Below, piece after piece: positions 10,882 through 24,644 of a stretch of 32,000 nucleotides of DNA. The stretch is taken from positions 2,010,001 to 2,042,000 of the forward strand of contig NC_003364.1 of NCBI RefSeq assembly GCF_000007225.1, in the 5' to 3' direction. The notes beneath the pieces were generated by a model, which was given only the letters and a program-made list of their open reading frames with translations, ran no database searches and was not told the DNA's origin. Position 1 is the first letter of the stretch. Every line of letters starts with the position of its first letter. Made by a program: the position numbers and the translations under genes. Origin of the DNA: Pyrobaculum aerophilum str. IM2. Lineage in GTDB: Archaea; Thermoproteota; Thermoprotei; Thermoproteales; Thermoproteaceae.

Positions 10882-11218
10882 CCTCTTCACCGCCTTATAA
10901 CGCGTAATTTTTGGAACAGCCGCCGGCTTGCTTTCCCTTCACTTCGGCATACCACTTCAGCAACTCCCACTCCCCTGAGTTTTGCCAGGGGGAATAAATG
11001 CCTTGCGTAAAGATGGGCGACACCCCCTTCTCCTTTATCGACCCGTCGCCCGTTAGAGCCGCCAGCACCAGGGCCCTCTCCCCGTCTTGCCTCACGCTGA
11101 GTGTGGCTTTTCCCTATCTCAATGACGTTAGGCTAAGTAGTAAGGGAGTAAGATTTAGGAGGGCCTCGCATAGTTTTACGCGTTATTACTTAATAAAGCT
11201 CGTTTTTTCACTGGGCGC

Positions 11219-11503
11219 ATGAGGGTGTTGGTTAAAATCTTCGGGCCTAAATATTTCGGACTAGATACTTATGACGTGATTACTCTAGTACTAGATCTTA
11301 AAGAAGGCGCCACTGTGGGGGACGTAATGGAGGAGCTTGAAAAGCGCTACCCAGGCCTCCGGCAGAAATTACTGAGGGGGGAGGAGATTATTCCAATGCA
11401 CGACATTTGGGTAAATGGACGTTCTATTTATTTCCTCCAGGGGCTTAAAACGGCGTTGGCGGAGGGGGATGTGGTGCAGATAATTCCTCCGTTTGGCGGC
11501 TAA
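11219..11503 (+). CDS. ThiS/MoaD-family ubiquitin-like sulfur-carrier/modifier protein (C-terminal Gly-Gly)
   Basis: The 94-aa ORF ends in ...DVVQIIPPFGG directly before the stop and has beta-grasp-like length. The box acttaataaagc lies about 27 nt upstream of the ATG. Confidence 0.8.
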   Translation: MRVLVKIFGPKYFGLDTYDVITLVLDLKEGATVGDVMEELEKRYPGLRQKLLRGEEIIPMHDIWVNGRSIYFLQGLKTALAEGDVVQIIPPFGG

Positions 11504-12474
11504 GGGCGGGTCCAGTATACAACGTCTTTTTCAACTCTCTTTACCGCCCCCATTTCTTCTAGGTAGAGCAAGTGGCTGTACGCCTCTCCGATTGCGAAGA
11601 TCTTGTTGTAGACGTCAAAGTTTTCAAAACTCCCCGCGTCCCACTTAATTCTCTGCGCCACTTGATATGTAGTTAAGGGCTCTTTCAACACGGCTAAAAT
11701 CTCGCCGAGTCTTTTCTCGTGGTGTTTTACTAACTCGTCAATCCGCGTGGTTATGTCGCTTATTTCATCCCCGTGTGCAGGGTACCCTTTGGCTTTTATA
11801 TAGACTTTTCTCAAGCTGTTTAAATACGCCTTGAGGGGGTTGAAGCCCTTCTTGGGGTACCACGATATATTGGGCGTTATTTTCGGCAATATGTGGTCGC
11901 CTGTGAACACCCCGTCTCTGTATATGTATACGGTGTGTCCTGGCGTGTGGCCTGGGGTAGAGAGGGCCTTTAAGCCGCAGTCTAATAACTCGCCGTCTTT
12001 AACCCTCTTCCAGGGGAGTTTCCATACGTCTTCAAAGGCCTTTCTATACCTCGACATGGGGTGGATCTTTAAGAAGGCCTCTGCCACCTCCGCCGGCGCG
12101 CCGTGTCTCCTGTACTCCTCTGCGTATAGTCTCGCCAAGTCTTCAAAAGAAGTCGCAACTTCGCTGACCTCGCCCTCCCCTATGTAAAAATCTGGAGACG
12201 CCACTTCTGCGATAAACTGCGCCAAAGTTATGTGGTCGGCGTGGTAGTGAGTTATGAATACCTTAGTTATCTCGCTAGGCTTTATGCCGAGTGACTTAAG
12301 CCCTCTCAGCAGAGACAGAGCCGCATCGTAAGTGGCGAGCCCCGCATCTATCAAGCCGTAACCATCGCTACACTTAACCACATATACATTGACGTGTCCC
12401 AGCTCCATACCAGGTAAGGGAAGGGAAATTCGGAAAAACGCCATGCATTTGAATTCACACAGATTTATGTACAT
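11500..12474 (-). CDS. MBL-fold metallo-hydrolase with a C-terminal winged-helix-like domain
   Basis: The HxHxDH motif ITHYHADH is present, along with downstream His/Asp ligands (TPGHTPGH, TGDH). The real start may be internal Met 11 (MAFFRISL, coordinate 12444). Confidence 0.85.
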   Translation of the reverse strand: MYINLCEFKCMAFFRISLPLPGMELGHVNVYVVKCSDGYGLIDAGLATYDAALSLLRGLKSLGIKPSEITKVFITHYHADHITLAQFIAEVASPDFYIGEGEVSEVATSFEDLARLYAEEYRRHGAPAEVAEAFLKIHPMSRYRKAFEDVWKLPWKRVKDGELLDCGLKALSTPGHTPGHTVYIYRDGVFTGDHILPKITPNISWYPKKGFNPLKAYLNSLRKVYIKAKGYPAHGDEISDITTRIDELVKHHEKRLGEILAVLKEPLTTYQVAQRIKWDAGSFENFDVYNKIFAIGEAYSHLLYLEEMGAVKRVEKDVVYWTRP

Positions 12475-12659
12475 TTACTTCTCGCGAGCCGCGAATCCCC
12501 TACGCCCATCTACTGCGTATTACCGCAACCTCCTGCTTGCGTTAGCCGCCCAGCCGTTGAGCTAAGACTCCTGTACTATTATATTCGCCGCGGCGCACAA
12601 AAGAGGAAATAACGCTAGAGGCCAAAACTCCTAACTGGGAAAACCTAAACAGCCGTTCG

Positions 12660-18579: not shown

Positions 18580-18628
18580 ACGACGGTAAATATAAAGCGA
18601 AGCCCCGGTAGCTCAGTCCGGCAGAGCG
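18570..18628 (+). repeat. Promoter plus 5' tRNA segment, copy 1 (near-identical to 28983-29041)
   Basis: The blocks acttaaaaacacgacgg, aaatata, gcga and gccccggtagctcag are shared with only a few substitutions and one 1-nt indel. Confidence 0.8.
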
Positions 18629-18700
18629 GCGGGCTGCAGACCCGTAGGTCCCGGGTTCAAAGGCGGCTTTGCCGCCGAATCGATCCCGGCCGGGGCTCCA
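18602..18700 (+). tRNA. tRNA-Cys (anticodon GCA) with a roughly 22-nt non-canonical intron in the T-loop; encoded CCA
   Basis: Hand-folded. The acceptor pairs GCCCCGG/CCGGGGC, and the D arm is GCUC-AGUCCGGCA-GAGC. The anticodon arm is GCGGG-CUGCAGA-CCCGU. The T stem CCGGG/CCCGG is interrupted: UUCAA [aggcggctttgccgccgaatcg, about 18661-18682] AU. The discriminator is U73, as expected for Cys. Confidence 0.85.
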
Positions 18701-18819
18701 CTCAATTATCCTTCAACTCTGTTTTAAGACTTAATCGCGCCTTGGAAAATCCGCAGTTTTCACAAGTGCAGCCCTCGGAATAATAATAGGCCGTACTGTG
18801 ATTGTGTTTTAGGCGTTAC

Positions 18820-19158
18820 CTATGAGGCAAAACTTGCCATTAGGTCTAGTTTTTCTCTATCTTCTGGGCTTAAGTTATTGGGATCTACTGAGGATAGTAT
18901 TACTTCTGCCGCGGCCTTGGGATTTGTGAAGTAATAAATGAATAGGCCTATTTTCACGCTTTTTAATCTTCCTTCTCTTTCAAGCACATATACGTGCCAC
19001 TGCACCGCTCCCCAGCTTTTTCTCGTCGTCTTTACTATTTGGGAAAGAGTGGCGGCCCCCATTTGTTCTACTACCTTTAAAATCTCGCGTCTTATGGGGT
19101 CGTCTGCTGTGGCCTTTTTTATTCTCGCGATTATTGGCACAATAGGCGCTGCTAACAA
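18820..19158 (-). CDS. Winged-helix (ArsR/MarR-like) DNA-binding protein
   Basis: DDPIRREILKVVEQMGAATLSQIVKTTRKSWGAVQWHVYVLEREGRLKSV follows the classic wHTH pattern. The only available start is TTG. Confidence 0.7.
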   Translation of the reverse strand: MLAAPIVPIIARIKKATADDPIRREILKVVEQMGAATLSQIVKTTRKSWGAVQWHVYVLEREGRLKSVKIGLFIYYFTNPKAAAEVILSSVDPNNLSPEDREKLDLMASFAS

Positions 19159-19214
19159 CTCCCTCCTGTTGCTGAAGATGTGGTTCAGCCCAGCCGCCGC
19201 GGCTATGCCTGTGG

Positions 19215-19490
19215 CTACGGCGATGACAGGCGCCTCGGGGCGGGTATTGGCTTGGGGGGAGTCGGCGGAGGAGGCTCAACGTAAATCCACCCTGCGATTT
19301 TAATTTGCGCCAACGTGGGGTTGCTACACACAATATTGACAGTGGCGGGGCCTTGGAGCGCCAAAGGCTCTGTCGCGTTACATAGCGGTGGTAGAGATGG
19401 TTTTACAATAACTGTGGAGTTAGGCGGCACTGGTACGGTAAATACCCAGAGGGATAAGGGAGTTAGGAGCAATAAAACAGTATAGTTCAC
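19215..19490 (-). CDS. Small secreted/exported protein with a Pro-rich C-terminus
   Basis: The N-terminal signal-like helix is MNYTVLLLLTPLSLWVF and the C-terminus reads EPPPPTPPKPIPAP. The TATA-like box aaaatataaataac lies about 24 nt upstream of the GTG start. Confidence 0.5.
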   Translation of the reverse strand: MNYTVLLLLTPLSLWVFTVPVPPNSTVIVKPSLPPLCNATEPLALQGPATVNIVCSNPTLAQIKIAGWIYVEPPPPTPPKPIPAPRRLSSP

Positions 19491-19528
19491 AACAATAAAG
19501 TGAGGAGAGTTATTTATATTTTGTGGTG

Positions 19529-19873
19529 TTACTTTCTTTGGGTATAGTTTAATAAATAGTAAAATGACGGAGTTATGTATTTCATTTTTGTTAATTGTAA
19601 TATTTTCGGGGGAAGTTGCTCGGCCAGCTGTCTTATTTTCTCTGTTGCTATATACTTCTTCTCTTTTTTAGATAAATCAAGCGAGGTTTCTTCGTACTCC
19701 ACTAGATAGCCCTCCTCTACTAATTGCCTCACGGCCTCCTCAACAGTAGTGATGGGAATGTCCGTTTTAATTCTCATCTCCTCCTTGGCGATTATAACCA
19801 TAGAATATATTGTATGTATATCTGCGTTTGTCAAGACGGAGGCTACAGAGGCGACCAGTTTTTTAATATCCAC
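19529..19873 (-). CDS. Small wHTH-like protein downstream of the ParA-like gene (partition-adaptor position)
   Basis: The 114-aa ORF contains the segment TVEEAVRQLVEEGYLVEYEE, typical of a winged-helix recognition/wing region. The TATA-like box gtatagtataaatag lies about 24 nt upstream of the GTG start. Confidence 0.55.
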   Translation of the reverse strand: MDIKKLVASVASVLTNADIHTIYSMVIIAKEEMRIKTDIPITTVEEAVRQLVEEGYLVEYEETSLDLSKKEKKYIATEKIRQLAEQLPPKILQLTKMKYITPSFYYLLNYTQRK

Positions 19874-19926
19874 GAGTAGTACTTGTTTCCTCTATTTATA
19901 CTATACGGTGTAAATGCCGTGGTGTC

Positions 19927-20595
19927 CTATTCTATCCACCTGGAGCGGGTAACTCTTTTCAACTCTTGTAGCAAATATTCTGCCAGTTTTGTCACCGGCT
20001 TTGTATAAAATTGCCCCCGTCTATTATAATAGTCTAGAGTGGCTGAAAACGGTATTTTCACAACGGCGCCGGGGTATTCTATTCCCCTTTCGTGTTTATT
20101 TAGAGCAATTATTAACTTTCCGTCGAAAAACTTTTTTATAATAGTTATAGGCTTTGTACAATCTTCACATCCCTCTACCACTAAAACTATTAAATCGGCC
20201 TTGTCTAGGCCGAATGTTTCAATGGGCGTTATCCTTGAGAGTTGATACATGTCAAGTACCACTACATCTATTGAATTTTTCACTATGTTCTTCCTGACGG
20301 CATCTGTGAGGTTTTGAAAGATCTCTTCCCAGTTTTCTATTCTCCATACCGAGGCCGGGTCAATTGCTATAGGTATTACAAACAAGTTTTTCACTCTTGC
20401 GTCTCTATAAGCCTCTATAGTTGGGGTAATATTTTCAATGTTTATTAACGGCGCAGGAAAAAACCTAGACGCCCCTCCTCCTAGATCTATAAGTAGTACA
20501 TTAAGTGGGAGAGCCGCCGATACATTGACGGCGAGCGTGGTCTTGCCAGCGCCGCCTTTACAACTCGTGAAGGCAACAGTCCCTGTTCTTATCAT
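19927..20595 (-). CDS. ParA/MinD/SegA-family P-loop ATPase
   Basis: The deviant Walker A motif CKGGAGKTT is present near the N-terminus, along with Walker B-like VVVLDM. The length is 222 aa. The ATG lies 3 nt after the stop of the frame-corrected upstream gene (tgataaATG). Confidence 0.85.
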   Translation of the reverse strand: MIRTGTVAFTSCKGGAGKTTLAVNVSAALPLNVLLIDLGGGASRFFPAPLINIENITPTIEAYRDARVKNLFVIPIAIDPASVWRIENWEEIFQNLTDAVRKNIVKNSIDVVVLDMYQLSRITPIETFGLDKADLIVLVVEGCEDCTKPITIIKKFFDGKLIIALNKHERGIEYPGAVVKIPFSATLDYYNRRGQFYTKPVTKLAEYLLQELKRVTRSRWIE

Positions 20596-20598
20596 TTA

Positions 20599-21031
20599 TC
20601 ACGGCTGTGCAGCTGGGCGACACTTCTCTGCAAATATAGCCACTAATGAGGCCAGTTTGCTGTTAAAACGCTCGGCGAGTTTTACTAAATCCTCGGGGGA
20701 CATGGACTTGCTCAGGGCCTCTATATGCGGCTCTTCTAATAAGTCTATGGTTTTTAAAAATGACGTCGATCATCCTGTCATTTATTACAAGCGGCGTGGC
20801 CTTGGGGGCGATTAAAAACCTGACAAACGTCCTCTCCTCTGGAGGCAGTTTCGCGATAGTTGATGCCACATAGCGCATAAACTGGCCTACGTCTGTTGCC
20901 TCTTTTGCGACAACTGCAGTTATTTCTTGTAGCGAAGCCCCCTCTGCTGTTCTTGCCTCTTGAACGGCTTCCGCGACTTCTCTTTTAGGTTCCTCTTTTT
21001 TCTCGCCCACGATAGTCCTGAACTTTTCCAT
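20599..21031 (-). pseudogene. Hypothetical protein with an apparent +1 frameshift at a T5A5 run
   Basis: The track ORF (20663-21031) ends ...IDVIFKNHRLIRRAAYRGPEQVHVPRGFSKTRRAF*. The +1 frame from the tttttaaaaa run (20751-20760) reads FLKTIDLLEEPHIEALSKSMSPEDLVKLAERFNSKLASLVAIFAEKCRPAAQP*. That reading is much more protein-like and ends right at the ParA start. Confidence 0.5.
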
Positions 21032-21070
21032 GTGGCTAAGTGTAACTTAATTTTTTAAGTATTGTGTAGT

Positions 21071-21532
21071 TTATGCGGTAATAAGGAATAACGGCGATAA
21101 GTCGGAATATAGCCGTTTATAGAAATTTACTAGCCTCATTGCCGTGTCCCATAAATCATTTAATTCTTTTACAGAGTCAAACAACTCGTCTAACGTGAGG
21201 TGAGCGGCGCGGCCCTCCTTTACGTCTTCTAACCTGGCCCGTAGCTTTTCAATGACAATTTCCGACTCTCGTAGGAGAGTCTCCAGCCTCTCTCTTATTT
21301 CCCTTAAGCCCAGTTCTTCCATCTCGGGAACTCTTGTCGAGAGCCTTTCGACTACTTCAGCCAGCCTTCTGCCCTCGCCCTTGAGATATCCCTCTGCTGA
21401 GTCTACAACTTTTGTTAATGTCTCATAGACAGATGCGTTGAACTGTTGCATTGTGGAAATGTGTTGCTCGGAGTTTTTCAACAGCTCATTGATAAAAACG
21501 GCGTCTCCATATTTCCTCACATATCTCTCCAC
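21071..21532 (-). CDS. Hypothetical alpha-helical/coiled-coil protein (153 aa)
   Basis: The sequence is rich in E/R/L heptad-like stretches (LREIRERLETLLRESEIVIEKLRARLEDVKEG). GTG start, with ctataaaaac upstream. Confidence 0.6.
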   Translation of the reverse strand: MERYVRKYGDAVFINELLKNSEQHISTMQQFNASVYETLTKVVDSAEGYLKGEGRRLAEVVERLSTRVPEMEELGLREIRERLETLLRESEIVIEKLRARLEDVKEGRAAHLTLDELFDSVKELNDLWDTAMRLVNFYKRLYSDLSPLFLITA

Positions 21533-21560
21533 GTGGTTTAATTACAATTTGTTTTTATAG

Positions 21561-23318
21561 TTAGAGGCATGCTTTGTGCGGACTATATTTCTGGATTACA
21601 TCAGAATAGCCGGCGCCGGCAAGGGCTATCTCCAGTTGCCTCAAAGCCAGGCACGGGGTTTTTCTAGCTAGCTTTGTGGCGGAGGCAACTCCGACTTCTA
21701 CTACGATATTAGCACATCTCGCGCCGCATTTTTCATATATCAGCGAGGCATCTCCCACAGCCTCTATGTACTTGTCTAATAAAGCGCCGTAGTCCTCGCC
21801 CAATTCAACGGCAGTTACCAACGCCTGGGCTAATAACTCCCCCGGGACTATATAGGAGTTTTGCACAGTTGCCAACGCCAGTTTTTTTGTAATGGGGCTG
21901 CCCAACCGCAAGGCGGCATCTATATAGTCTTTAAATACCCTTAAATCAGTCCTTCCCCCTTCCGATGCCTCATACAAATAGTTCAAGACCTCTATCCACC
22001 CCCTTTCCCCGACTTCCTCAGCCCGAAATCCGGCGTAGTATTCAAGGCCGCTTTTGAGCGATGGAGGTAGCTCCACGCTGAGTCTCTCCGGAGTTAATAT
22101 CGCTTTAATAATTACATCGGGCAAGGCGCCGTGCACGCACAAGGGCTTAATTTTCCCCAAACAGGGGTTTCCGCCTCTGGCAATGGCGGCTAGGGCCTTA
22201 GCTAAATCGTTGTTGGCCTCATGCGCAATTACATATGCCTTTACTAAATTTCTGAGGCTCACCTCGCTAGGTTTATATCCGCATTGGACGGCGACTTCCT
22301 CCGACGCCTTTGTTAAGGCCTCGTTGTAAAGAGGTCCTAGCTCTCTAGACAACGCCCGTAAATGCCAATGGGGTTTCATTAATTTTTTTAGATCCTCCGC
22401 AGTTTGCAGTGCAAGTATCTTTACGTATTCCTTGTGGGGATCTGGTAACTTATTAATAAGAGATATAAGTTTTTCTAATGTTCTTACTTTAACTTCAACA
22501 GTTTCATAATAAATCGCCAGGCTTGCCAAAGGGGGCGGGAGCCCTCTGCTGTGTAGCGTTTGGATAAAAGCCTTTGCCTTACTGCAACTAGGGGCGTATA
22601 CGGCCTTGGCCAATGCTGTTAGCTTCTCCACGTAAGCCATCTTAGCCTTCTCAACTAAGTTTGCAGGGTGCTCATCGCAGAACTCAAGAGATTTGGCTGC
22701 GCTATATGCGATGTAGTACATTCCCTCACCTAGTTGTGAAATGCGGGACGAGATCTCTTTAACGTAGTCCTCGCCGCAGTAGACGTCACTGTTTTTCGCA
22801 AAAATCTCGCCGGCTATTGACTCCTCTGCCGTTACTACTATATTATCGTAAAGCCGCAACTCCTTCTTACACCTCTCCGCCAAGTCAAAGGGCAAGACGA
22901 TAACTACTGGATAACCGTTTTTTCTCACGTATTCAGCTCTTGCTAAAATTCTATTGCAATTATCCCTCCACAGCGTTGCATATTCAGACCAAATCTCGGG
23001 CTCTGCGTAGAATTGCAACGGCACTGCGTCAAAAACGGCAAATGCCCACTTTGCTCTTTTGGCTATTCTTAAATACTCGGCGAAATTAGAAGTATCAGAG
23101 GCCAAGTCTATCACAGCGCCGCCTTTTTCTAATGCGGAATACGCTATTGTTAACGCCAGCACCGACTTCCCAACTCCGTGTAAGCCCTTTAATAAAACAG
23201 ACTCGCCGCTAGAAAGCCTTTTCTCAAGCTCTTTCATTAACGGAATATTAACAATAGCCACCTCCCGCTCTCCTAGCCTCATCTGCAACTCGCCGCCGCG
23301 GCGGCTGAAAAGATGCAC
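21561..23318 (-). CDS. P-loop NTPase with a large all-helical C-terminal domain (STAND / archaeal-ATPase-like architecture)
   Basis: Walker A is LKGLHGVGKSVLALT and Walker B-like is WAFAVFDAV. These are followed by about 400 aa of helical, repeat-like sequence. The TATA-like box gttaaatagg lies about 25 nt upstream of GTG 23318. Confidence 0.7.
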   Translation of the reverse strand: MHLFSRRGGELQMRLGEREVAIVNIPLMKELEKRLSSGESVLLKGLHGVGKSVLALTIAYSALEKGGAVIDLASDTSNFAEYLRIAKRAKWAFAVFDAVPLQFYAEPEIWSEYATLWRDNCNRILARAEYVRKNGYPVVIVLPFDLAERCKKELRLYDNIVVTAEESIAGEIFAKNSDVYCGEDYVKEISSRISQLGEGMYYIAYSAAKSLEFCDEHPANLVEKAKMAYVEKLTALAKAVYAPSCSKAKAFIQTLHSRGLPPPLASLAIYYETVEVKVRTLEKLISLINKLPDPHKEYVKILALQTAEDLKKLMKPHWHLRALSRELGPLYNEALTKASEEVAVQCGYKPSEVSLRNLVKAYVIAHEANNDLAKALAAIARGGNPCLGKIKPLCVHGALPDVIIKAILTPERLSVELPPSLKSGLEYYAGFRAEEVGERGWIEVLNYLYEASEGGRTDLRVFKDYIDAALRLGSPITKKLALATVQNSYIVPGELLAQALVTAVELGEDYGALLDKYIEAVGDASLIYEKCGARCANIVVEVGVASATKLARKTPCLALRQLEIALAGAGYSDVIQKYSPHKACL

Positions 23319-23392
23319 AAGTTATTATGACGTGGCCTATTTAACTACGGGATTTTAAATCATATATTAAAAAACAAGACCGATAAATTGTT
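23319..23392. promoter_or_regulatory. 74-nt divergent promoter region
   Basis: The A/T boxes ctatttaac (minus-strand gene) and atatattaaaaaac (plus-strand gene) each lie about 25 nt from their respective GTG starts. Confidence 0.5.
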
Positions 23393-24172
23393 GTGTCCAC
23401 CGCATTAGACGCTGGAATTGCCGGTAGCCGTTTTATCCGCTTGTTACTTAAACAGGGAGAGGTGAAGTCAGACGACACGCTGGGGAGGCTTTTCCACTTA
23501 CTTGCGGAGATGGGATATTTCGTAAAGAGGGGCGATAGGTATAAAAGGACAAGTAAAATACCGCCCTCTATATCAAGCAAGCTTTTAGGCTCTGTTTTTG
23601 ACGACATCATTATCCCCTATTTAATAGGAGAGGCCATTAAGCCTAATTTTGAGGCAGTATTTGCGGCAACGGCGTTATTCCAGCCTTACAGAATACGGGC
23701 GGCGAGTAAATTCGGAAGGGGGGCCCTGGCTCTTGTAGCTGGCTGGTTGCCGTGTGGGTTCTCCACTGAGATATCCGCCGCCACTGGGGCCGACTTGGTA
23801 ATACAAGACGAGCATTGGGAAGTTTTGGCGCTTGAGGAGGAGAGGATATCAATCCTCCCAGTTGAGCTAGAGCGCGTTGGAGAGGCCATGGCCGCCTCCG
23901 TATTTGTCAGCTTTGAGGCAGGCCGCCTCGACGAATTGCCAGCGGATAAATATGGCAAGTTTTCCTTCGCTGTAATTTGCCACAGAGCTGTTGACGTCAA
24001 AAAGGCGCGTGAATTAGCCGACAGAGTGTATAGAGTCAACTTCTCAGGGGCGTTGGGAATATTTGCAGATCTCTTGTCAGAGGCAATGGGGCTGGGTAGG
24101 GGCGAGGAGTGCGGGCGGGGCGGCAGGGTCTTGTACAAAGACTCGGAGATCTGCCTCACTGATGTTTCGTAA
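23393..24172 (+). CDS. Hypothetical protein with an N-terminal wHTH-like region and an uncharacterised C-terminal domain
   Basis: The N-terminal segment is wHTH-like: LGRLFHLLAEMGYFVKRGDRYKRT. The remaining roughly 190 aa contain no motif I recognise. The stop overlaps the GTPase start by 11 nt. Confidence 0.6.
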   Translation: MSTALDAGIAGSRFIRLLLKQGEVKSDDTLGRLFHLLAEMGYFVKRGDRYKRTSKIPPSISSKLLGSVFDDIIIPYLIGEAIKPNFEAVFAATALFQPYRIRAASKFGRGALALVAGWLPCGFSTEISAATGADLVIQDEHWEVLALEEERISILPVELERVGEAMAASVFVSFEAGRLDELPADKYGKFSFAVICHRAVDVKKARELADRVYRVNFSGALGIFADLLSEAMGLGRGEECGRGGRVLYKDSEICLTDVS

Positions 24173-24644
24173 GCGCGAGTTGAAGACTATTGTATTCTTG
24201 GGAGTTGGCGGCGTTGGAAAAACGACGTATATCTACAGATTACTGGGGCTGGCCAGAGCTCCTAGAGTCACGAGAAAGCCTGGCGTGTATGAACTGCAGT
24301 ATAGGGGCGTTGAATTGTATATAGTGGATACGCCTGGTCAATATGCGGTTGAAGTCGCCAGGAGATATTATGAGGCAATTAAGACGTTTGGCACTAAGCT
24401 GGATTTAATAGTCTACATGTACAGCGCAGCGGACCCCTTCACTCTCTACTCGTTATTTGACATAGAGCAGTGGGTCTCCAGGTATCCTCCTCATAATAAA
24501 ATACTCATTGGGAACAAGCGGGATTTAGCCGAAGAGCTCGGGTATCTGGTCGAGGGAGACGACGTGGCAATTGCGCTAGGCGCTAAAAGGCTTTACTACA
24601 CCTCGGCTTTAAAAACGACCCGGCTGAGCTTTTACAACACTTAG
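24162..24644 (+). CDS. Ras-superfamily small GTPase
   Basis: All five G motifs are present in order: G1 GVGGVGKT, G2 Thr in VTRKPG, G3 DTPGQ, G4 NKRD and G5 TSALK. The start is set at ATG 24162 (MFRKRELKTIVFLG), because the track's 5' extension reads as low-complexity sequence. Confidence 0.8.
   Translation: MFRKRELKTIVFLGVGGVGKTTYIYRLLGLARAPRVTRKPGVYELQYRGVELYIVDTPGQYAVEVARRYYEAIKTFGTKLDLIVYMYSAADPFTLYSLFDIEQWVSRYPPHNKILIGNKRDLAEELGYLVEGDDVAIALGAKRLYYTSALKTTRLSFYNT

Follow-up and report, generated by a model that had tools for sequence, protein, structure and literature searches.

A 32,000-nucleotide stretch of the genome of Pyrobaculum aerophilum str. IM2 (contig NC_003364.1, positions 2,010,001 to 2,042,000; hereafter the window, from the first letter of which all coordinates are counted) carries a gene cluster in which a P-loop NTPase gene stands back to back with a Ras-like GTPase gene. 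The NTPase gene, NTP585 (21561-23318, minus strand), encodes 585 aa with a Walker A motif GLHGVGKS and a Walker B motif AFAVFDA. It is followed on the same strand by CC153 (21071-21532), encoding an all-helical, E/R/L-rich protein of 153 aa; by the frameshifted gene or pseudogene S143 (20599-21031), which contains a 122-aa open reading frame (ORF) at 20663-21031; by ParA222 (19927-20595), which has the deviant Walker A motif KGGAGKTT; and by wH114 (19529-19873), encoding a small predicted winged-helix protein. Across a putative divergent control region of 74 bp (23319-23392) lie, on the plus strand, U259 (23393-24172; 259 aa) and the gene of a Rup-type Ras-like small GTPase (24162-24644; 160 aa). 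The reading frame of the latter opens at 24063, its true start is the ATG at 24162, and the 3' end of U259 overlaps this start by 11 nt. All ORFs listed in a first-pass annotation of this DNA were found where it had placed them, and the NTPase gene is, as it had stated, back to back with a GTPase pair, namely U259 and the GTPase. The small gene that it had called frameshifted indeed carries one extra base near 20750 relative to intact orthologues. The genes are real and not chance ORFs, since NTP585 has full-length homologues of 49-99% identity with about 140 invariant positions and the gene order recurs elsewhere. Neither the locus tags nor a description of the cluster was found in any publication by literature searches.

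To compare the cluster between genomes, loci were fetched from GTDB genomes and from contigs encoding homologues (numbered L001, L004, L014 and so on) and compared by tblastn. The order NTP585-CC153-S143-ParA-wH114 is found in P. neutrophilum, P. oguniense, Pyrobaculum sp. WP30, a second P. aerophilum strain and several metagenome-assembled genomes (MAGs), with U259 and the GTPase divergent and upstream of NTP585, except that the GTPase is missing in P. oguniense. The order of NTPase, coiled-coil gene, small gene and ParA, for which the first-pass annotation had proposed a test of conservation, is thus conserved in other Pyrobaculum genomes, and no housekeeping family could be assigned to the NTPase. 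The neighbourhood is also constant: every contig with enough flank shows pyruvate phosphate dikinase (PPDK), a ribosomal-protein block and a 4HBT thioesterase. In the MAG lineage represented by L004, the five-gene block lies on the other side of the same ribosomal-protein cluster. The GTDB pattern scan overlooked P. neutrophilum, which carries the cluster, and therefore absence of the cluster from P. islandicum or P. calidifontis is not inferable from that scan. In L014, the second P. aerophilum strain, PaREP2a and PaREP2b genes (11106-12626 of that locus) are inserted between wH114 and the p89/PPDK side. In the same assembly CC153 and ParA are frameshifted and the PPDK region is without any called gene, a pattern that suggests decay or indel-rich sequencing.

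The two genes on the plus strand encode a protein with no recognisable relatives outside its own family and a member of a described GTPase group. In the orthologue alignment, the N-terminus of U259 resembles a winged helix (…LLAEMGYFVKRGDRYKRT…), and the C-terminal part of about 200 aa has a conserved VAGWLPCGFSTE…GADLVI motif and belongs to no known family. U259 and its orthologues gave no match in Pfam (E <= 1 apart from noise), in NCBIfam or in a profile search against the PDB, and as judged from these searches U259 is a new protein family. A single-sequence structure model of U259 was unusable (pLDDT 36). The arrangement, in which a Ras-like GTPase gene overlaps the gene of a partner that has been duplicated along with it, is like that of MglA-MglB. 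However, U259 has no Roadblock/LC7 or longin signature, is roughly double the length of MglB and seems to start with a winged helix, and a pair of the MglA-MglB type was rejected.

The GTPase has the motifs G1 GVGGVGKT, G3 DTPGQ, G4 NKRD and G5 SALK and matches MMR_HSR1, Ras and Arf in Pfam. Relative to the 99%-identical P. aerophilum strain of L014, the window GTPase has a 1-bp deletion after about 24614, which swaps the conserved C-terminal tail SALKDDPAELLQHLVQNL for SALKTTRLSFYNT. Rup Group 2 has been described as confined to Pyrobaculum and multi-copy, with 2-6 copies per genome including a 160-aa P. aerophilum entry, and no conserved neighbouring proteins were identified for it (Wuichet & Sogaard-Andersen 2014, PMC4316618). 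The window GTPase, of 160 aa and with G1-G5 motifs including DxxGQ, fits by its sequence the description of that group (DxxGQ, about 150-170 aa, Pyrobaculum, multi-copy). Its length equals that of PAE3403, a Rup Group 2 entry in the supplement of PMC4316618 that may be the same gene; the agreement is one of length. The survey had found no conserved neighbours, whereas two neighbour families are found here.

These two families are NTP585 and U259, and their relation to the GTPases extends beyond the locus itself. A profile of NTP585 searched against 1.84 billion representative proteins returned 20 matches only. The distant full-length matches are a paralogue family of about 640 aa, 26% identical to NTP585 (E 1e-21), carried by P. 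ferrireducens, P. islandicum, P. neutrophilum and MAGs, all of them Pyrobaculum; precomputed annotations place the TPR families PF14559 and PF13424 in its tail. In all loci examined, the 3' ends of the paralogue gene and of a convergent GTPase gene overlap, the product of the latter being 42% identical to the window GTPase. NTP585 and the paralogue occur together in one genome, as seen on a shared 158-kb contig and in P. neutrophilum. A gene of 237-257 aa near the paralogue locus was considered as a relative of U259 and is unrelated by BLAST.

An alignment scan of metagenome contigs with the GTPase gave 80 loci, the six-frame ORFs of which were searched with profiles of each cluster protein, and these loci fall into five groups. 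In Group A the GTPase is 58-76% identical to that of the window, U259 precedes it, and NTP585 is divergent wherever the upstream flank suffices. Groups B and C, with GTPases of 46-51% identity, occupy one syntenic site in different lineages. Group B has a 265-aa U259 paralogue in convergent orientation (41% identity over 261 aa, E 7e-72), and Group C has a 281-aa U259 paralogue downstream in the same direction (35% identity, E 6e-44). The GTPase of Group D, at about 42%, is convergent with the 640-aa NTPase paralogue, and beside those of Group E (37-46%) neither the U259 nor the NTPase family was detected. Since U259 paralogues stand beside GTPase paralogues in three different arrangements, co-directional and convergent ones among them, the adjacency of the two families has outlasted rearrangement. 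Adjacency kept through duplication and a change of orientation is better evidence of a functional link than synteny within one genus, and as far as sequence comparison goes the paralogous linkage to GTPases is the strongest signal at the locus, going beyond the first-pass annotation.

Two further relatives were noted in these searches. A further paralogue of the Rup GTPases, at L095 (5992-6984), shares a tail-to-tail overlap with a P-loop protein of 174 aa and THEP1-like look (GAPGVGKTT), the third type of P-loop protein seen beside a Rup copy. In L021 (1732-5988 and 6254-10192), the gene of a distant relative of the NTPase family (P0074, 1418 aa, about 25% of the query matched) adjoins a three-gene cluster including a Piwi-domain (pAgo) protein.

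As the first-pass annotation had proposed, NTP585 combines a P-loop NTPase domain with a long C-terminal stretch of helices. An AlphaFold2 model built from an 11-sequence alignment (pLDDT 90.6, pTM 0.81) shows an N-terminal three-strand beta element (residues 1-21), an ASCE P-loop domain (25-176), a helical lid (183-241), helical domain A (245-408), a lower-confidence linker (about 410-424) and helical domain B (425-585). Walker A (G45-S52, GLHGVGKS) and Walker B (AFAVFD97) are invariant in the alignments, and the P-loop domain has beta-alpha-beta topology in the model, in line with the ASCE domain and Walker A/B motifs that define STAND proteins. D97 is followed by Ala in the orthologues and by Pro in the 640-aa paralogues, leaving no second acidic residue; the STAND Walker B, as Leipe and colleagues reportedly described it in 2004, is hhhhDD/DE with a second acidic residue. 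After the NTPase domain, STAND proteins carry a helical (ARC1-like) and a winged-helix (ARC2-like) subdomain; in the model of NTP585 the lid is helical, and beyond it a winged helix is not clearly seen, only isolated beta bridges near 394-397. The roughly 340 aa from 245 to 585 are all-helical, which confirms the helical part of the expected "helical repeat-like" C-terminus; of the repeats that STAND proteins carry there (TPR, WD40, LRR or ARM), no family was detected in NTP585 by Pfam. About 24 residues precede the NTPase domain, and no effector domain is present.

The class of the protein was assessed from profile and structure searches. In Pfam, NTP585 scores 24.2 bits against nSTAND3 (PF20720), for which the gathering cut-off is 27.2, followed by AAA_16, nSTAND5 and nSTAND6; no curated family threshold is passed and the best family matches are confined to the first 90 or so residues. 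Some homologues carry PF20720 in precomputed tables. NCBIfam gave P-loop-only matches, among them those to FlaH/ArlH/KaiC (E about 0.005, 16 bits), an identity that was rejected, and PHROGs gave noise only. Foldseek against the PDB found no strong match (best E 2.8e-3), and its matches mix AAA+ proteins (MgsA, NorQ, RFC, Rpt) with STAND proteins (NLRC4, NRC3, Avs4, NOD2). The domain model and these mixed matches indicate that NTP585 is an AAA+/STAND-class ATPase, the modelled layout of which is closest to a STAND protein. The affinity suspected by the first-pass annotation is therefore present in weak form, through sub-threshold profile matches and the mixed structural ones. Of the other affinities that it had listed, Orc1/Cdc6 or another replication initiator was rejected, there being no initiator match in Pfam or NCBIfam and only IstB/DnaC-like P-loop matches of 12-17 bits. 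KAP NTPases carry a transmembrane insert within the P-loop domain; in NTP585 such a hydrophobic insert is absent and the model is a continuous soluble domain, so that KAP was rejected as well.

A search of 5.8 billion proteins returned ten NTP585 clusters, all Pyrobaculum, all full length and 49-99% identical. The named members come from P. aerophilum, P. ferrireducens, P. arsenaticum, P. oguniense, P. neutrophilum and Pyrobaculum sp. 3827-6, and the genome of Pyrobaculum sp. WP30 also encodes the protein; annotations are hypothetical, ATP-binding or, mistakenly, EcfA2. As judged from these matches the family is restricted to Pyrobaculum. Conservation along the protein is even: the mean pairwise identity is 0.62 in the NTPase domain, and helical domains A and B have values of 0.57 and 0.63. 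Twelve cysteines (121, 150, 181, 214, 245, 346, 386, 394, 531, 535, 556 and 584), eleven invariant and one nearly so, include one Cx7C and one CxxxC arrangement and could form disulfides or a metal site. P. aerophilum is known for cytoplasmic disulfides.

The genes downstream of NTP585 encode small helical, ParA-like and winged-helix proteins. CC153, which starts with the conserved motif MERYxRKYGD and ends in a hydrophobic tail, is the least conserved protein of the cluster (39-56% identity), and its only Pfam match is a weak ApoLp-III-like one. Intact S143 orthologues are 143-148 aa long and their stop codon abuts the ParA start codon; the frameshift in the window copy near 20750 was seen in a DNA alignment with L014 and in orthologue translations. 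The protein has three parts, namely a basic peptide that is invariant at the N-terminus (MEKFrtivGekKeE), a low-complexity linker that varies, and a C-terminal domain of about 95 aa that is highly conserved, and neither Pfam scans nor a profile search against the PDB gave a match to its orthologues. We infer from these features that S143 is a partner or adaptor of ParA222. No protein of the cluster is more conserved than ParA222 (75-83% identity), which has homologues in Pyrobaculum only; the deviant Walker A (K12GGAGKTT), the Walker A' D36 and the Walker B D114 are invariant in the orthologue alignment. It matches Pfam CbiA at 30.1 bits against a cut-off of 25.4 and a ParA-like PHROG at E 2e-10. 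phmmer against the PDB retrieved no chain; a profile search gave MinD as best match (E 4e-4), then Soj, with no SegA chain at E <= 1. ParA222 is, as these matches place it, a highly divergent ATPase of the ParA/MinD superfamily (SIMIBI). The wH114 orthologues have weak Pfam matches to many winged helix-turn-helix families, and their top PDB match, to the centromere-binding protein AspA of pNOB8, is non-significant (E 0.024-0.18). A TATA-like element lies about 20-40 nt upstream of wH114, and a promoter-like motif is repeated at 19893-19911 and 19511-19529.

The arrangement resembles known ParA cassettes (pNOB8 AspA-ParB-ParA, SegAB, type Ib ParF/ParG) in that an ATPase of about 220 aa with a deviant Walker A is flanked by a small winged-helix protein, with the adaptor-like S143 upstream, translationally coupled to the ATPase and carrying a conserved basic N-terminal peptide. 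Unlike in such cassettes, there is no significant similarity to SegA, SegB, AspA or ParB, the genes are embedded with a STAND-like ATPase and a GTPase pair, they are dispensable in nature, and centromere-like repeats are lacking. No such repeats and no tandem arrays were found in 17.9-25.7 kb, where only chance-level short matches occur; degenerate sites could escape this search. A SegAB system was rejected, ParA222 having no SegA match and neither wH114 nor S143 the SegB signature motif quoted in PMC12139799. SegB has been reported absent from Pyrobaculum (PMC12139799), and the genus is said to segregate its chromosomes in a way unusual for Crenarchaea. These two points make a genus-specific module that contains a ParA of interest. 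In PomXYZ and McdAB, a ParA-like ATPase works with a coiled-coil or helical scaffold and an adaptor whose basic N-terminal peptide stimulates the ATPase. The parts list at the present locus is similar; the analogy is one of logic only, and no homology to these systems was detected.

The retention of the genes was surveyed in 44 loci. NTP585 is intact wherever the contig covers it. U259 is likewise intact where its region lies within the contig, except for a frameshifted copy in L049, and it is not adjacent in L004. wH114 is intact wherever its region lies within the contig, including loci from which ParA and S143 are deleted, and this persistence after upstream deletions fits the TATA-like element that it appears to own. 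The CC153-S143-ParA segment, in contrast to these retained genes, has suffered at least five deletions with distinct end points, seen in L001-3 and L009; in L007; in L025, L026 and L039; in L033; and in L034, L035 and L041. Each deletion takes S143 and the P-loop (5') end of ParA, and several also take all or part of CC153; the deleted loci keep a 3' ParA remnant and an intact wH114. Frameshifts occur in S143 (window), CC153 and ParA (L014), CC153 and S143 (L006), ParA (L024) and CC153 (L004), some of which may be assembly errors. The frequent loss of the ParA segment argues against an essential role for it.

An alignment of 13 orthologous intergenic regions shows that the 74 bp separating NTP585 from U259 are conserved in length and hold two A/T-rich, TATA-like boxes of conserved sequence, each lying some 25 nt from a start codon. 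Their placement suggests back-to-back promoters giving leaderless divergent transcripts, with a putative promoter function for each box. At the other end, the genes p91 and ArsR112 (18820-19490, minus strand) are peripheral to the cluster, and only some of the species have them. A single ORF of about 224 aa takes their place in L007 and L008, and a frameshift near 19200 splits it in the window; the undivided, membrane-anchored protein begins with a hydrophobic segment and continues through a Pro-rich linker and another hydrophobic segment to a winged helix of ArsR type. This split is the third frameshift within about 6 kb of the window, after those in S143 and the GTPase. A tRNA gene with an apparently non-canonical intron (about 18596-18702, plus strand) lies about 120 bp past the cluster's final gene; ARAGORN does not report it, and the Rfam match (31 bits) covers no more than 18602-18657. 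The GC content is 0.44-0.47 across 19001-23000 and 0.50-0.57 in much of the flanking sequence.

The components are all of known broad classes (STAND/AAA+ ATPase, Ras-like GTPase, ParA, winged helix), and their combination matches no named system. Our preferred reading, held at low confidence (a probability of about 0.35), is that the cluster is a chromosomal, Pyrobaculum-specific nucleotide-switch module that acts on DNA or the nucleoid and is not an immune system. It starts from the observed gene content, fold class, paralogous linkage, conservation pattern and ParA-segment decay; all physical interactions, DNA binding, promoter use and the cellular process served are what we infer. In such a module, U259-family proteins would be cognate regulators or effectors of the Rup GTPases. 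The ATP-driven NTP585, probably together with CC153, would join the GTPase and U259 in a two-switch assembly and serve there as scaffold or switch, its helical region of about 340 aa binding a fixed cellular partner and not a fast-evolving foreign ligand. The output of the assembly would reach DNA through the winged-helix parts, namely wH114 and the N-terminal part of U259. In the ancestral form, with all parts present, the basic N-terminal peptide of S143 would couple the assembly to the ParA-type ATPase, which would position it on the nucleoid.

Several lines of evidence lead to this reading. The family is confined to Pyrobaculum and keeps one neighbourhood in P. aerophilum, P. neutrophilum, P. 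oguniense, WP30 and many MAGs. Two paralogous NTPase-GTPase pairs exist, both in one genome, and U259 paralogues stand beside other GTPase paralogues. NTP585 was present in every Group A contig in which the U259-GTPase pair had enough upstream sequence. Conservation along NTP585 is even (0.57-0.63 per domain) and the gene is intact in all loci. To these are added the intact ParA motifs, the adaptor-like S143 translationally coupled to ParA, and the conserved divergent TATA-like boxes.

A number of observations weigh against it. All the comparison lies in one genus, where synteny alone keeps neighbours together. In L004 neither U259 nor the GTPase is adjacent to the five-gene block, and the P. 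oguniense locus has no GTPase. The paralogous GTPase and NTPase genes are convergent and hence not co-transcribed. Adjacency is the whole basis for taking U259 as the partner of the GTPase, given a structure model with a pLDDT of 36. Any positioning role is dispensable in nature, since S143-ParA is deleted or frameshifted in many lineages, and no centromere-like repeats were found in 17.9-25.7 kb. NTP585 also has its weak Pfam similarity to nSTAND3, the NTPase of Avs5 defence proteins.

This last point leads to the alternative that the locus serves antiviral or anti-mobile-element defence, NTP585 being an Avs-like STAND sensor with a helical C-terminus that recognises a viral protein, and the GTPase, U259 or ParA acting as separate effectors or regulators. 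Such a system, which we consider unlikely, would be an archaeal STAND system with a separately encoded effector. The similarity to STAND NTPases of the nSTAND3/AAA_16 type, such as the NTPase-TPR core of Avs5 (AVAST type 5), lies in the P-loop ASCE domain, the helical lid and the long alpha-helical C-terminus, and Foldseek aligns NTP585 over its full length to NLR-type proteins with low scores; in its viral library the top match is an NLR-like phage protein (E 4e-5). Sub-threshold nSTAND3, nSTAND5 and nSTAND6 matches, with PF20720 precomputed for some homologues, agree with this, as do a lineage-specific family expanded into paralogues and diverging faster than its flanks (49-64% identity, compared with about 89% for PPDK), the repeated loss of partner genes, and the Piwi/pAgo cluster beside the 1418-aa distant relative. 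However, NTP585 falls below the Pfam cut-off, its Walker B reads hhhhD-A/P, it has no clear winged-helix subdomain and no N-terminal effector, and an effector domain such as the nuclease, SIR2 or protease fused in Avs proteins is found in no member. PADLOC yields only a 20-bit P-loop match to mad8 and none to Avs. The sensor regions of Avs5 are described as variable, whereas the C-terminal domain of NTP585 is as conserved as the ATPase domain (0.63 and 0.62), the opposite of a diversifying sensor. The gene is single-copy in one conserved housekeeping neighbourhood and not in a variable defence island, and the candidate sensor is the part that never decays. The defence role suggested by the first-pass annotation is thus not supported, given the even conservation, the largely fixed chromosomal site, and the lack of an effector, a PADLOC system match and phage or plasmid relatives.

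The retained parts are NTP585, wH114 and U259, and they could also be read as a STAND-type transcriptional regulator, in which NTP585 would be an ATP-dependent switch like MalT or AfsR, with wH114 and/or U259 providing the DNA-binding domain in trans and the ParA genes being unrelated neighbours. The winged-helix look of wH114 and of the U259 N-terminus fits this, and the conserved divergent promoter would suit autoregulation. We nevertheless regard this as quite improbable: Pfam and NCBIfam show no detectable similarity to the MalT, AfsR or GutR families, wH114 appears to own a promoter, the paralogous linkage to GTPases is left unexplained, and NTPase-CC-S143-ParA-wH is kept as a block in the rearranged L004.

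The least probable of these alternatives, a relic of an anciently integrated plasmid or virus backbone with an AAA+ initiator- or loader-like ATPase and a decaying partition cassette (adaptor, ParA and centromere-binding winged helix), would account for the ParA and small DNA-binding proteins beside a P-loop ATPase that typify replicon backbones, the pNOB8 AspA match of wH114 (E 0.024), the recurrent deletions and frameshifts, the GC content of 0.44-0.47 below that of the flanks and the tRNA gene about 120 bp past the last gene, but is very unlikely. A search of the locus for an integrase, att-like repeats or further genes of mobile elements found none, no homologue occurs in 50,697 phage or 72,556 plasmid records, and the two IMG/VR matches are a DnaC/IstB-like loader beside a DnaB helicase in an unrelated phage. 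NTP585 has no Orc1/Cdc6, DnaA or Rep similarity above noise; it is inherited vertically, no lineage has a broken copy, and its paralogue on the chromosome is linked to a different GTPase.

A bolder version of the host nucleotide-switch module may be considered, in which Rup GTPases have dedicated U259-type and effector-less STAND-like ATPase partners and the locus is a hub joining a GTPase network to a ParA motor, so as to organise or segregate the nucleoid or to set the site of division or polarity. We hold this to be a long shot. It would matter because the lineage lacks SegB, as mentioned above, and is not known to have the FtsZ and ESCRT-III division machinery; if true, the locus would encode a new kind of archaeal cell-organisation machine. 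At the level of the families, two previously undescribed ones are defined here, NTP585/640 and U259. With them the Rup Group 2 GTPases of Crenarchaea, which are multi-copy, uncharacterised and of interest for the origin of eukaryotic small GTPases, gain their first candidate partners. The only systematic survey (PMC4316618) had found no conserved Group 2 neighbours, and the linkage reported here fills that gap, giving a testable parts list for intracellular organisation in Pyrobaculum.

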